Positions 1-32,000 are shown, counted from the first letter of the stretch. The stretch is 32,000 bases of DNA from Candidatus Izimoplasma sp. HR2 (GCA_000753575.1 JRFF01000053.1:89641-121640); one strand, 5' to 3'. Notes: a model not told the origin generated them from the letters alone. Program-made: numbers and translations.

Positions 1-93
1 AGTAAGAGGTGCTGCGCTACCAAGTTCAATTAATAGTTTAGTTATTTCTTCGATAGTTAGACTTTGTTTTATAAAATCTTTATCTAAATACAT
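1..93 (-). CDS. hypothetical protein, N-terminal fragment (gene runs off left edge)
   Basis: ATG at 93..91 preceded by GGAGGAAG SD. Frame stays open to the window edge (MYLDKDFIKQSLTIEEITKLLIELGSAAPLT). Confidence 0.4.
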   Translation of the reverse strand, partial: MYLDKDFIKQSLTIEEITKLLIELGSAAPLT

Positions 94-112
94 TGGTAGC
101 TTCCTCCTTCCT

Positions 113-1672
113 TTAGAAGTCGTCTTCAGTATCTTCGCTGACATCAAAAGCTGTTAATTTAGGAATCTTAATTTTAAAGTTTTCAATAGGTTTCGACCGC
201 AGATCAGTAACTATTACATCTTGCATTTTACAAGTTCCTAAATCAGATTTAGCTCAAATTTTTATTCCCTTATACTTGCTACCTCTATTTTTATAAAGTG
301 TAGTAACCATATCAGGTCTAGGTATATTATATTGTTCAACAAATATATCAGCGAAATCCTCTTCTTCTTCATTTAATGGAAGGCATATGGCTCCAACGTC
401 GAGCTTGTCCCCCATCGATTTCGCGCCGCGGAGGGCATTTACAGTTTGTACTTTCCTGTCTTCTCAAGAGCCATTTAATTGACTTGCGGTTTGAATGAAA
501 ATATTTAATTCATAACTTAAATCTTTCAACATTACAGTAAATAAAAATAAGATTGTATCTTCTCTTAATTTCATTCCTGTTTTTGAACTTGATTCAAATA
601 ATAATTTTGGTGTAGAATGTATATAGTCAAAGAAGATATAATCAATTACTTTTTTCACTTTATTTTCATTATACATTGAATGTAATTTTCTTATAATAGC
701 TTCTATGTCATCTGAATCAAAATTAGAAATATAAGCAATTTCTAATGTACTTTCTTTTACTATTTTTGCTGCTTTTGCTAATAATTCATCTTCAAAATCA
801 TTAGTTTCACCATCTTTAATAATATCTTCATTTATTCCAGTAATCCATGCTAGTATCATCGTTTGAATTTCAGATAATTCCATTTCTGTAGTAATGAATC
901 CAACTCCAACAGTATTTTCATTTTTTATCCAAGATTGTGTTTTTGAATCGTAATATTCAGTTATAGCTAAATTACAAGCATCTCCAACTGCAAACCGTGT
1001 TTTACCCACTCCGCTTGCAGCGCTACGCATGTATAGTCTTCTCTTTCTTGCGCCACGAATTGCACTGTTATACATAAGACCTTGAAGAGCTAATCCTATA
1101 TCAGGACTTTCTTTAAGTTGCTTTAATAAATCTTCAATTCCAATATCAGCACTATTAATTTCATATGTACTATTAATTTCAAATTCAACTTTTATTTCTG
1201 ATACTATTTTGTCAAGTCTTCCTGTTAAATCCGCTAATGTTAATGAATCAAATTCTTTTTGTCTATTTTTATTATGAGCAAGTCCGTCTACTCCTAAGAA
1301 TAGTTCCGTATTTGCCATTCCTCTTAAAGTAAGATAATTTATAAAAGAATATTTTTTAATTCTTTCATAGTAATAATTAAAGTTATCTTCTTCTGCTAAT
1401 TTAATAGCACTATTTATATAAGGAACTCCATCTTGATTATTGAATATTTCATATTGTTCTTTATATGATGATAAAAAGTTATCTATTGCAATTCCATCTA
1501 CTGTTCCAAATCTTCCCATAATATGAAGATTATTTATTGCGCCAAATAGGATTCTATAGAATCTTTCACCGAAGTCTTCTTCTCTAAGAGAATATTTTTT
1601 TTCGTTTAGAAGCTTTGGATTTTTTGCTAAACTCCCTAAGACTTGTAATATTGCTCTTTTATCTATTAACAC
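113..1672 (-). CDS. dnaB: DnaB-like replicative DNA helicase (519 aa with TGA=Trp)
   Basis: Track ORF 464..1672 ends at TGA (464-466). Reading on gives ..QLNGSWEDRKVQTVNALRGAKSMGDKLDVGA.. with a second TGA at 254-256 and TAA at 113-115. Walker A is AASGVGKT. GTG start has AGGAGG 7 nt upstream. Confidence 0.8.
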
Positions 1673-2034
1673 TATAAGCCTCCTATATCAATTAATTTTT
1701 TATTTTTCTCAATGCATTTTTTTGTAGATATTTTAACTTCTACAATTTCAAAATTTAATTCTTTAGATTCTCAAATGTCCATTTTTTTCTTATAAAATTC
1801 TTTAGCTCTTTCATAAAAATAAGGTACAATACCAATTCCTCCATTGGCTTTTTGTTTATCCATTTTTTCTATTCTATAAATATAATCTAATGTTAATTCA
1901 ATCCCTTTATAAGTATATTTATATTCTTCCATAATTTCATTTATTTGTTTTCTTACTCTTGGAACTACATACTCATATCCAAATAGTTCGCACATGAACA
2001 AGTAAAGGCTGTCTCTATCTGAAACCAATTCCAT
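1672..2034 (-). CDS. hypothetical replication-module protein (possibly longer, see frameshift finding)
   Basis: ORF 1771..2034 reads through TGA at 1771-1773 to TAG at 1672-1674. Its stop overlaps the helicase GTG start (TAGTG). Confidence 0.6.
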
Positions 2035-2185
2035 TTTTGCTTTTTCTGTCCCCTCATAACATTCTTTATGGAAGTATCTTTTCTTTTTTTCATCGTAAAT
2101 GTGAGCCGTTTCACTGCGTCTAAAAAATTCTCCACAGCTAGGGACATTTAACTGGTCTGTCAGACATTCTATACCTCCTTAATGT

Positions 2186-2216
2186 AAAATAAGAGGTATT
2201 ATTTAAAACACCTCTT
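2186..2216 (-). terminator. rho-independent terminator after the AAA_24 ATPase gene
   Basis: Minus-strand stem aagaggt/acctctt followed by ATTTTAC. Confidence 0.5.
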
Positions 2217-2222
2217 TTATGC

Positions 2223-30142: not shown

Positions 30143-31492
30143 ACCCTTTAATGGCAATACTGCTTGTATTTTTCTATCACGAGCAAACTTTATTGAACCA
30201 GCAGCGCTGTCTCCTTCTACTAGTAATATTTCGCTATTTCCTTTATTCGCATTTTGACAATCAGTAAGTTTACCAGGCAAGACTATTGCTCCACCTACTA
30301 CACTTTTTCTTCTTACTGTTTCTCTTGCCTTTTTAGCTGCTTCTCGAGCCTTTTTAGCTAGAGATGCTTTCTCTAAGATTTTTACTATGTCTGTTTTAAA
30401 GTTAACAAAATATTGTTTTAATGCTTCTGTAGATATTTTACTTACATAACTTCTACCTCTAGCATCTGTTAACTTGTCTTTAGTTTGTCCATCGAATACT
30501 GGTTCAGGCATCTTTAAATTGATTATTAAAGTCAATCCTTCTTTTAAATCTTCCCCAGTAAAGTTACTATCTTTATCTTTAAGAATTTTTTCTTTCTTTG
30601 CAAAATCATTAGCTGTTTTAGTAAATGAACTTCTAAATCCAGTTAAATGTGTTCCAGCACTATTAGGGATATTATTTGTATAGAGTTTTACTTTTTCATT
30701 TGTTCCTGTATTGAATTGCACAGCAATCTCAACAGTAGCATCTTCAATGTCTTCTTCACAATAGAAAATATTTTTATGAACTAATTTTTTATCTTTATTT
30801 AACATATTAACATAATCTATTAATCCATTCTTACTTAAATATTCTATTTTCTCATTAGTGATTTCATTTTCAAGTTCAAACCGCATCCCTTTAGATAGAT
30901 AAGATAATTCTTCAACTTGTCTTTTGATTGAATCAAAATCAATTTTAGCATCTGTAAAGATTTCATTATCTGGTAAGAAATGTAGAGTTGTTCCACTAGA
31001 AATATTCTTTCCTATCTCTTGGACTTCTCCTTGAACTACACCACGTTTAAATTTTACTTGATAAGTTATTCCATTTCTATTTATAGTAAGTATTAACCAT
31101 TCTGATAAAGCATTAGTTGCTTTAATTCCAACTCCATTTAATCCACCAGAGCTATTGTATCCAGAATCTCCAAATTTACCACCTGTATGTAACATAGTTA
31201 ACAAAGCTACGAGAGAATGAGTTCCATCTTCCATTAATCCTATTGGCATACCTCTGCCATCATCCTCTATAGAAATTGATCCATCTTTATGAAGTTTAAT
31301 TTTTATAGAAGTACCAAATCCATTCAAATGTTCATCGATGGCATTAGAAATAACTTCTAAGATGATATGGAAGACTCCTTCAGCTCCGATAGACGAGACG
31401 TACATGCCTGGTCTAGTTCGAATCGCTTCAATGTCTTCTAAATGTCTTATTGCATTTATACCATAGTTGTCTAATTCTTTTTTTATTTCCAT
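30143..31492 (-). CDS. gyrB: type IIA topoisomerase subunit B, exon 1 (ATPase, transducer, start of Toprim)
   Basis: LEAIRTRPGMYV, EVISNAIDE, LNGVG and EILLVEGDSAAGS. The TAA at 30137-30139 in the track ORF lies inside the intron. Confidence 0.85.
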
Positions 31493-31500
31493 TTATCCTC

Positions 31501-31869
31501 CTACATTTCTCGTAGTAATTTGTTTAAAAGATTTTTACATTTTCTTGCATCTTGTTCTATATTAAACTGTAAATATCTAAATTTTGAATTGATAATAATT
31601 TCTGCATTAAATCTATTTATAATCATATCAATTACTACATCAAAATCAAAATCAAGCATTTCTTCTATTATATATTTGAAACTATTTATCCCTGGCTTAC
31701 TCATAATTTTTAAAGGACTTGCGATTAAAAAGTGATTGCCTGACTTAAATACTGTAAAGCAAGTTTCATCTTTACAACCTCTACCCCAATCAGATTGCGT
31801 TTTAACCGCATTTTCTTTTCTCTTGGGTATAACTTTAGTTTTACCTTTAATAGTTCGTAGTTTAGCCAT
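31501..31869 (-). CDS. hypothetical protein
   Basis: 122 aa, SD AAAGGAGG, TAG stop. Confidence 0.55.
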   Translation of the reverse strand: MAKLRTIKGKTKVIPKRKENAVKTQSDWGRGCKDETCFTVFKSGNHFLIASPLKIMSKPGINSFKYIIEEMLDFDFDVVIDMIINRFNAEIIINSKFRYLQFNIEQDARKCKNLLNKLLREM

Positions 31870-31884
31870 ATTATATTACCTCCT

Positions 31885-31917
31885 TTAAAAGAAACAGAAT
31901 TAAATAATCCTGTTTCT
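31885..31917 (-). terminator. hairpin / weak terminator
   Basis: Minus-strand stem agaaacag/ctgtttct followed by TTT. Overlaps the TAG of the upstream partial gene. Confidence 0.4.
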
Positions 31918-32000
31918 AATCATTTTTATTTAAAAAAGCTATTTGTTTATTGTCTTTTTTAATAATTTTTTTAATTAAACAAATAATATTTTCTTTTGTT
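31916..32000 (-). CDS. hypothetical protein, C-terminal fragment (gene enters from right edge)
   Basis: Open frame ..TKENIICLIKKIIKKDNKQIAFLNKND ends at TAG 31916-31918. Confidence 0.35.
   Translation of the reverse strand, partial: TKENIICLIKKIIKKDNKQIAFLNKND

Follow-up and report, generated by a model that had tools for sequence, protein, structure and literature searches.

The stretch of 32,000 nucleotides from Candidatus Izimoplasma sp. HR2 analysed here (GCA_000753575.1, JRFF01000053.1:89641–121640; 'the window', numbered from its first letter) has a G+C content of 29.6% and a strongly negative GC skew, and all of its credible genes lie on the minus strand. Pfam identified, in its 5′ part, a DnaB-like helicase, an AAA_24 protein, YorF- and YorH-like proteins, DHFR and the thymidylate synthase ThyA; further along, a GIY-YIG endonuclease, an ATP-dependent ligase, ClpP, a metallophosphatase, an RNaseH_like (DUF458) protein and PTH2; and, in the rest, a transglutaminase-like protein, the DNA methyltransferase Dam, a DUF2828/DUF7788 protein, GyrA and a split GyrB. 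Positions 12510–25535 are taken up by a tRNA array of 25 genes, among which small open reading frames (ORFs) are interspersed; ARAGORN found 24 of the tRNAs and Rfam a tRNA-Trp(CCA). Across 17 of the minus-strand genes there are 27 in-frame TGA codons, and the window is very probably part of a phage or phage-like genome of ~128 kb that has TGA as a tryptophan codon instead of a stop.

The TGA-containing genes are all on the minus strand, as are all window coordinates given below. Those matching known families begin with a DnaB-like (SPbeta YorI-like) replicative helicase of 519 amino acids (113–1672; Pfam DnaB_C/DnaB; TGA at 464–466 and 254–256), followed by a YorH-like protein of 120 amino acids (1672–2034; Phage_SPbeta_YorH in a public gene call; TGA at 1771–1773), in which the coding signal runs across the TGA and the column is variable, with CAG in the syntenic relative L001. 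ThyA (287 amino acids, 5065–5928; Pfam 1.1e-57) has three TGAs (5836–5838, 5632–5634, 5446–5448), as does the ATP-dependent DNA ligase (381 amino acids, 7386–8531; Pfam DNA_ligase_A_M; 8436–8438, 7833–7835, 7731–7733). A free-standing GIY-YIG homing endonuclease of 301 amino acids (6469–7374; Pfam GIY-YIG, NUMOD1 and I-HmuI NUMOD-like) has one TGA (6484–6486, also TGA in L001, in the motif YGY(K/R)W(K/E)YID) and no TGG. The RNaseH_like (DUF458) protein (181 amino acids, 11180–11725; Pfam 3.2e-41) has its TGA at 11504–11506, in the motif GQGAWGWRY, where L001 and a second syntenic relative, L222, have TGG. The remaining two are a Dam-type (D12 class) N6-adenine DNA methyltransferase (243 amino acids, 15628–16359; Pfam MethyltransfD12; TGA at 15787–15789) and a second GIY-YIG homing endonuclease inside a putative gyrB intron (29244–29972; Pfam GIY-YIG; TGA at 29736–29738 and 29508–29510, no TGG), which has 242 amino acids in Logan and NCBI-derived gene calls vs 78 under code 11. 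A preliminary description of this sequence had listed TGA positions and named these families; all of its TGA coordinates are in-frame codons of the minus-strand genes concerned, and Pfam agrees with its assignments (helicase, ThyA, ligase, DUF458, Dam, GIY-YIG). A further TGA at 30072–30074 was rejected as lying outside the second endonuclease gene, upstream of its real start.

The other TGA-containing genes encode small proteins. Those of 137 amino acids (9508–9921; TGA at 9535–9537; coding signal on both sides; Shine-Dalgarno sequence GGAGG) and 108 amino acids (11746–12072; TGA at 11875–11877 and 11830–11832; coding signal across both; AGGAGG) are given at these lengths by the public Logan calls, vs 128 and 65 amino acids under code 11. 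Genes for proteins of 133 (12625–13026; TGA at 12964–12966), 68 (16370–16576; 16529–16531) and 60 amino acids (22277–22459; 22325–22327) appear in public gene calls and have coding signal and Shine-Dalgarno sites, the last being the first non-endonuclease gene with a TGA along the direction of transcription; a 64-amino-acid protein (15175–15369; 15235–15237) has coding signal and a Shine-Dalgarno site. In the gene for a 143-amino-acid protein (13060–13491; GAGGAG) the coding signal persists for 45 codons beyond the last of three TGAs (13234–13236, 13198–13200, 13192–13194). A 135-amino-acid protein inside the tRNA array (21508–21915; TGA at 21829–21831; coding signal) has 132 amino acids in the Logan calls vs 89 under code 11. 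An ORF of 43 codons (9932–10063; TGA at 9998–10000 and 9977–9979; AGGAGG) is an uncertain gene, with a weakly positive coding score and no counterpart in public gene calls. The five small ORFs singled out by the preliminary description, at 9932, 12625, 15175, 16370 and 22277, all exist and have Shine-Dalgarno sites of AGGAG type, and 3/5 also appear in independent public gene calls. Two ORFs seen under table 4 only, at 17213–17395 and 19410–19604 inside the tRNA array, had no coding signal and were discarded as spurious.

Scored by codon-usage log-odds, with TGA-free genes as the training set, the sequence flanking nearly all 27 TGAs was positive in frame and negative in the other frames, before the TGA as well as after it. 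In a greedy gene call, the minus-strand coding fraction rose from 69.5% under table 11 to 79.0% under table 4 or 25 (70.9% in a control in which TAG was read as sense), and genes of at least 200 amino acids rose from nine to 13 when TGA was read as sense; the comparison between tables that had been proposed thus gave a gain in both coding density and ORF length. With TGA as sense, 49 ORFs were called; they were tightly packed and none ran into a neighbour. All ended in TAA (33) or TAG (16), in agreement with the earlier statement on gene ends, although stops were predefined as TAA or TAG in this call, so that it could not by itself reveal a TGA stop. One gene of a relative (L212, 17589–17906) was called with a TGA end, beyond which a TGA-sense reading would enter a tRNA-Glu gene by 22 nt; the call may have been trimmed, or a TGA stop may persist there.

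The claim that the standard-code ORF track is broken by TGA proved literally true of the public record. The GenBank annotation of the contig was made with code 11 and its proteins are shortened by it: ThyA has 117 rather than 287 amino acids, DnaB 402 rather than 519 and Dam 190 rather than 243, the ligase is a fragment of 125 out of 381 amino acids, and the RNaseH-like protein (181 amino acids) is represented by fragments of 73 and 88. Public code-11 calls are fragmented, whereas another public gene caller (Logan) already gives the intact proteins. The TGA-bearing sequence is identical in independent assemblies, and the TGAs are therefore not assembly errors.

Before alignment to homologues TGA was masked as X, so alignments were not biased by an assumed residue. 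PDB sequence searches with Dam and ligase gave no match and a large protein database was used instead. The three ligase columns held tryptophan in 105/116, 113/116 and 116/116 homologues (<50% identity), with glycine in three of ~350 homologue cells, all in one column. The Dam column held tryptophan in 118/118 full-length homologues and glycine in none; both the GenBank version of Dam and an 84%-identical relative end exactly at this column. One helicase column was tryptophan in 28/31 relatives and the other tyrosine, alanine or tryptophan, and in 19 ThyA relatives from IMG/VR the three columns were W/Y, W and W/F. Bacillus subtilis ThyA (PDB 1b02/1bko) has tryptophan at or adjoining all three, and the motifs VRTKW, IWDQW and ETQWYV, which the preliminary description had given, are correct. 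The columns in these four proteins are thus mostly or entirely tryptophan rather than gaps, termini or glycine, which bears out its choice of tryptophan over the glycine of table 25. It was also right that TGG serves as a tryptophan codon (58 TGG vs 33 TGA in the raw call).

Comparison with relatives extended this to the level of codons. Opposite 11 TGAs of the window, the syntenic relative L001/L026 (55–83% protein identity) had eight TGG, two TGA and one CAG, and its own TGAs faced TGG or TGA in the window; within ThyA, where L001 is 79% identical to the window, TGA and TGG were exchanged between the two. In L222 the window TGAs corresponded to nine TGG, three TGA and one other codon. Both helicase TGAs were TGG in L001 and L222, the ligase TGAs were TGG in L001, L222 and a more distant relative, L223, and a fragment, L213, had a TGA in gyrA opposite a TGG of the window. 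There was no in-frame TGA in the compared genes of L223, nor in other ThyA and helicase relatives. We regard this interchange of TGA and TGG as the strongest evidence for tryptophan, and on these comparisons TGA is to be read as tryptophan.

A candidate decoder heads the tRNA array. The tRNA with anticodon UCA (25462–25535; ARAGORN; Rfam tRNA 36.6 bits) comes first in the array, with gyrA 355 nt upstream of it, and folds as a standard 7/5 cloverleaf of 74 nt with a 4-nt variable loop; ARAGORN labels it 'SeC' from its anticodon only. Its length, 7-bp acceptor stem, variable loop and G73 show it to be neither tRNA-Sec, which has a long variable arm and acceptor/T stems of 8/5 or 9/4, nor tRNA-Gly. 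U73 is a determinant for glycyl-tRNA synthetase, and both phage tRNA-Gly genes have it; discriminator bases throughout the array are canonical (U73 for Gly, C73 for His, G73 for Trp, Gln, Asp and Asn). The determinants for bacterial tryptophanyl-tRNA synthetase (TrpRS) are C35, A36 and G73, together with A1–U72 and G5–C68. The combination of A1–U72, G73 and unpaired 27.43 and 31.39 was found in 3/45 tRNAs of the window phage and L212, namely the tRNA(UCA) of each and the tRNA-Trp(CCA) of the window (18014–18087; Rfam tRNA 46.3 bits, overlooked by ARAGORN), all three of which have G5–C68. The L212 tRNA(UCA), mis-registered by ARAGORN as Glu-UUC, lies at the syntenic site and has a perfect acceptor stem and compensatory changes relative to the window copy. 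Eight cloverleaf pairs differ at both partners among the three tRNAs, and the proportion of paired cells is 87%, vs at most 54% in slid controls. Overall tRNA sequence identity did not separate Trp from other isoacceptors, whereas the identity elements and the anticodon-stem peculiarity did. By its identity elements, then, tRNA(UCA) is likely to be of Trp type and is the predicted decoder of UGA, and it is probably a duplicate or paralogue of the phage's own tRNA-Trp(CCA). Two DNA-pattern scans of IMG/VR for the suppressor tRNA were uninformative, one giving no match and the other 119 chance matches, none of them in a tRNA.

TGA is the minority tryptophan codon. Its share was 33/91 (0.36) in the raw call and 32/114 (0.28) in curated genes, the latter counted over a 46-kb composite of the window and its flanks with homing endonuclease genes left out, whereas A/G-ending codon pairs of Lys, Glu, Gln, Leu, Arg and Gly are 85–91% A-ending. 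Such a share puts the reassignment a long way from mutational equilibrium, and it looks young or constrained. The codon is also unevenly distributed. Non-endonuclease genes of a leading block at 22580–32000 (the gyrB exons, gyrA, the DUF2828/DUF7788 gene and small ORFs) have no TGA, and the TGA-free block extends 6.2 kb upstream past the window end through genes for an RNA ligase and an M16 peptidase. Counted with this extension, the block has 0 TGA and 22 TGG in 4048 codons; in the 7785 codons that come after it there are 32 TGA and 60 TGG (Fisher p = 3.8e-4; scan-permutation p = 0.0025 for a TGA-free run of that length). The two homing endonucleases show the opposite, with three TGA and no TGG. 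Replication genes are among those with TGA: DnaB and ligase and, beyond the window, RecJ, PIF1 helicase, RNase H and DNA polymerase III (Pol III) alpha. The order of TGA-free leader, suppressor tRNA and recoded genes is suggestive, an observation rather than a result. The 505-amino-acid DUF2828/DUF7788 (and VWA-like) protein, encoded at 22580–24097 inside the tRNA array, has six TGG codons and no TGA; its L212 counterpart is 78% identical.

The window sequence is 100% identical to parts of contigs of 127,887 and 128,148 bp from independent assemblies; in the first, from the European Nucleotide Archive, it occupies positions 63,051–95,050, and it is present in Logan assemblies too. Three of its proteins, GyrA, DUF2828 and AAA_24, match GenBank KFZ25999.1, KFZ25997.1 and KFZ25963.1 respectively at 100% identity; these entries are on the 128,148-bp contig and are labelled 'MAG: ... 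Candidatus Izimaplasma bacterium HR2' (MAG, metagenome-assembled genome). The replication module is SPbeta-like (YorF, YorH and YorI, with RecJ, PIF1 helicase, RNase H and Pol III alpha just outside the window), and the closest cultured matches are SPbeta-like, Staphylococcus, Enterococcus and Lactobacillus phages. IMG/VR contains relatives by ThyA and helicase matches; a GyrA-based scan of IMG/VR found none, and megablast of 12 kb of the window against INPHARED phages gave no match. Structural genes were absent from the 46 kb examined.

Published figures for the bacterium are relevant here. HR2 is reported with 2,222 coding sequences, 2.12 Mb, 58 tRNAs and 29.2% G+C, and its sister genomes HR1 and ZiA1 with 38 and 34 tRNAs and 1.88 Mb (PMC6256511, Table 1). 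The HR2 excess of ~20 tRNAs, and its extra size, are accounted for by a co-binned phage of ~128 kb with at least 25 tRNAs. Given this excess, the SPbeta-like module and the cultured phage matches, the genome is most likely that of a phage binned with its probable host; its phage identity, judged from gene content, is well supported if short of proven. The probable host is accordingly Candidatus Izimaplasma HR2 itself, a free-living relative of Mollicutes, and we infer that it uses the standard code: HR1 is 100% complete under code 11 (PMC6256511, Table 1), code 11 was used to annotate the HR2 record, whose gene count is normal, and within the Bacillota table 4 is applied to the order Mycoplasmatales only, in a list of lineages that excludes Izemoplasmatales (bioRxiv 10.64898/2026.05.24.727570). 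An explicit statement of the Izimaplasma genetic code was not found in the literature searched. A ligase-profile search of genome contigs returned only distant relatives (31–38%) in Clostridium, Bacilli and 'Mollicutes' MAGs, and not HR2.

With a standard-code host, the recoding would be imposed by the phage. UGA would be decoded by the phage-encoded tRNA-Trp(UCA), which host TrpRS could charge with tryptophan because the identity set C35, A36, G73, A1–U72 and G5–C68 is kept, and the charged tRNA would compete with host release factor 2 (RF2) at UGA. TGA-free genes ahead of and around the suppressor tRNA gene might be translated before the tRNA accumulates, while downstream genes, the replication module included, would use TGA. 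The full proposal, of a TGA-to-Trp phage of a standard-code Izimaplasma with its replication module recoded behind a TGA-free leader that carries the suppressor tRNA gene, is a speculative one, and we consider it unlikely to hold in every part.

Several observations count against the more general reading of a TGA-recoded phage with its own decoder. The links to the host are co-binning and a similar G+C content (29.6% vs 29.2%) alone. The TGA-free block was delimited post hoc, from data already seen, and it is leakier in relatives, where gyrB has one TGA in L212 and gyrA one in L213; moreover, the timing of expression would have to be read from gene order alone. Essential replication genes have up to three TGAs each, so early suppression must be efficient, and TGAs in such genes do not fit a simple 'late switch'. 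The activity of tRNA(UCA) is not assured, since U2.U71 and U3.U70 are mismatched in its acceptor stem, in each of four assemblies, and no other tRNA of the array scores as low in Rfam. No phage TrpRS, release factor 1 or RF2 inhibitor was seen within the 46 kb.

The main rival to a phage-imposed code is that the code is native to the host, the phage mirroring a table-4 Mycoplasmatales-type Mollicute, or an Izimaplasma in which UGA is tryptophan, and tRNA(UCA) being one of a near-complete set. The contig was indeed binned with a MAG of the Mollicutes lineage, the phage tRNAs mostly have U34 anticodons for A-ending codons, into which tRNA-Trp(UCA) fits, and TGA occurs in replication genes that are needed early. 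A native code 4 sits poorly, however, with a TGA share of 28–36% among tryptophan codons where other NNA/NNG pairs are 85–91% A-ending, with a block of more than 10 kb that has 0 TGA among 22 tryptophan codons, and with distant relatives that have no in-frame TGA in the same genes. Nor does it match the normal gene counts and completeness of HR genomes under code 11 (PMC6256511) or the restriction of table 4 to Mycoplasmatales within the Bacillota (10.64898/2026.05.24.727570), and we think it improbable.

A reading less probable still, and to our minds very doubtful, is that tRNA(UCA) is inactive or marginal and TGA acts as a translational attenuator, read through by near-cognate tRNA-Trp(CCA). 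In B. subtilis UGA is naturally leaky and decoded as tryptophan; the phage encodes a tRNA-Trp(CCA) too, TGA is under-used, and the mismatches and weak model score of tRNA(UCA) point the same way. At a readthrough of a few percent, however, hardly any complete protein would come from genes that contain three TGAs (ThyA, ligase, Pol III alpha); 0/49 TGA-sense ORFs continue into the next gene; and a relative has kept a tRNA(UCA) in the syntenic position, with a perfect acceptor stem and compensatory differences from the window copy. That TGA stands for glycine (table 25), selenocysteine or some other residue, or that the genes are pseudogenes or assembly errors, is scarcely credible and was rejected: the 'SeC' label of ARAGORN and glycine in 3/116 ligase homologues at one column stand against nine tryptophan-dominated columns in four protein families, the features of tRNA(UCA) (including G73, where the tRNA-Gly of the array has U73), identical independent assemblies, and TGA/TGG exchange in three lineages under purifying selection.

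Recoding of TGA to tryptophan in phages is already known, and the window adds one more case; earlier work on TGA-recoded phages is reportedly that of Ivanova et al. in 2014. Borges et al. described TGA-to-Trp phages with suppressor tRNAs in standard-code Firmicutes, among them the 'Agate' lineage (~127 kb) and the 'Jade' phages; in their account closely related phages can gain TGA fast, standard-code relatives avoid it as a stop, a homing endonuclease inside an intron favours it, and the keeping of replication genes in standard code varies among clades (10.1101/2021.08.26.457843). The genome studied here resembles Agate and Jade phages in its in-frame TGAs at tryptophan positions, its tRNA(UCA), the standard-code host attributed to it and the unequal TGA load of its relatives, as well as in apparently avoiding TGA as a stop and in having an endonuclease, inside a putative group I intron of a probably early gene, that uses TGA and not TGG. 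Its likeness to Agate (~128 kb, relatives of Bacillota type) is limited to size, recoding and the TGA-biased intron endonuclease. Unlike representative Agate and crAss-like genomes, in which replication genes stay in standard code and TGA is concentrated in structural and lysis genes, it has recoded DnaB, ligase, RecJ, PIF1, RNase H and Pol III alpha, and unlike the gut Agate phages it comes from a marine methane-seep enrichment, in an Izimaplasma bin.

Code 4 of the Mycoplasmatales (Mycoplasma, Spiroplasma) is similar in that UGA is tryptophan, tRNA-Trp(UCA) stands beside tRNA-Trp(CCA) and the genomes are AT-rich, and the probable phage host falls within the wider Mollicutes lineage. Those bacteria, however, have lost RF2 and have TGA as their predominant tryptophan codon, whereas here TGA is a minority codon at either count, unevenly distributed and carried by a mobile genome rather than a cell. 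From SPbeta, in turn, the genome is distinguished by its TGA recoding (SPbeta uses the standard code), gyrase, 25-tRNA array and homing endonucleases, although the two share a gene order of AAA_24, YorF, YorH and DnaB-like YorI, followed by RecJ, helicase and Pol III alpha; the replication module of SPbeta-like Bacillus phages runs YorF-YorH-YorI-YorL, and the helicase is 36% identical to SPbeta YorI.

The chief immediate value of these results lies in correcting a public record that is both mis-binned and mis-translated. The GenBank MAG (Ca. Izimaplasma HR2, JRFF01) holds a ~128-kb probable phage contig translated with the wrong code, which shortens ThyA, DnaB, ligase, Dam and the RNaseH-like protein and, beyond the window, RecJ, Pol III alpha and others. 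The contig also raises the tRNA count of the MAG (58 vs 34–38) and its gene count, and metabolic or tRNA inferences from the HR2 bin carry over the contamination. The host lineage and the recoded replication module are of modest biological interest: TGA-recoded phages are extended from animal guts to a marine methane-seep community, the probable host adjoins the code-4 Mollicutes, essential replication genes, and not late genes alone, would depend on suppression, and the genome offers a clear example of a tRNA-Trp(UCA) resembling a duplicate of the phage's own tRNA-Trp(CCA). If the full proposal is true, mobile tRNA-Trp(UCA) genes circulate in a lineage whose descendants fixed code 4, and phage-borne suppressors could be an intermediate that made UGA as tryptophan tolerable in proto-Mollicutes; alternatively, the code switch might be an early rather than a late one, shutting off host translation or evading defence.

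Other features of the tRNA array were noted. The tRNA-Trp(CCA) has a non-canonical T-loop, UUAAAUU rather than UUCGAAU, and a D-loop, AAUGUUA, without the usual GG, which may reflect a compensating change of the G19–C56 tertiary pair. A second copy of tRNA-Pro(UGG) is weak (39.8 bits) and has no CCA end, and a tRNA-Ile with a genomic UAU anticodon is kept in L212 (20400–20474 and 20627–20701 for the weak tRNA-Pro(UGG)/tRNA-Ile(UAU) entry). Genes for upkeep of tRNA and translation lie around the array, encoding a PTH2-type peptidyl-tRNA hydrolase (12085–12471), a T4 Rnl2-like RNA ligase and a metallophosphatase, those outside the window being upstream (L086 49–984 and 1671–2354); together the three may form a tRNA repair and rescue set.

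The gyrB gene is split into exons at 30143–31492 and 28555–29103 by an insertion of ~1.04 kb (29104–30142) that contains the second GIY-YIG endonuclease. Joining ...CCATTAAAGGGT to AAAATTCTTAAT... at the junction gives a single ORF of 632 amino acids, colinear with the intact 643-amino-acid GyrB of L212. The last base of the 5′ exon is U and that of the insertion G, the pattern of group I introns, and we infer an intron from this splice-junction logic; Rfam did not recognise a group I intron there, even at E ≤ 1. Between the 3′ exon and gyrA lies an ORF of 105 codons (28229–28546) that overlaps the start of gyrA by 19 nt. A similar ORF of 102 codons is found at the equal position in L213, and none in L212, where gyrB directly adjoins gyrA. 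The free-standing GIY-YIG endonuclease, encoded between ligase and thyA at 6469–7374, has three tandem repeats of ~47 amino acids that match helix-turn-helix-type domains (consensus ...EVIEKYKELKY..KTAEYF.CC..TI...L.R...); its L001 orthologue is 90 amino acids shorter and apparently has one repeat fewer.

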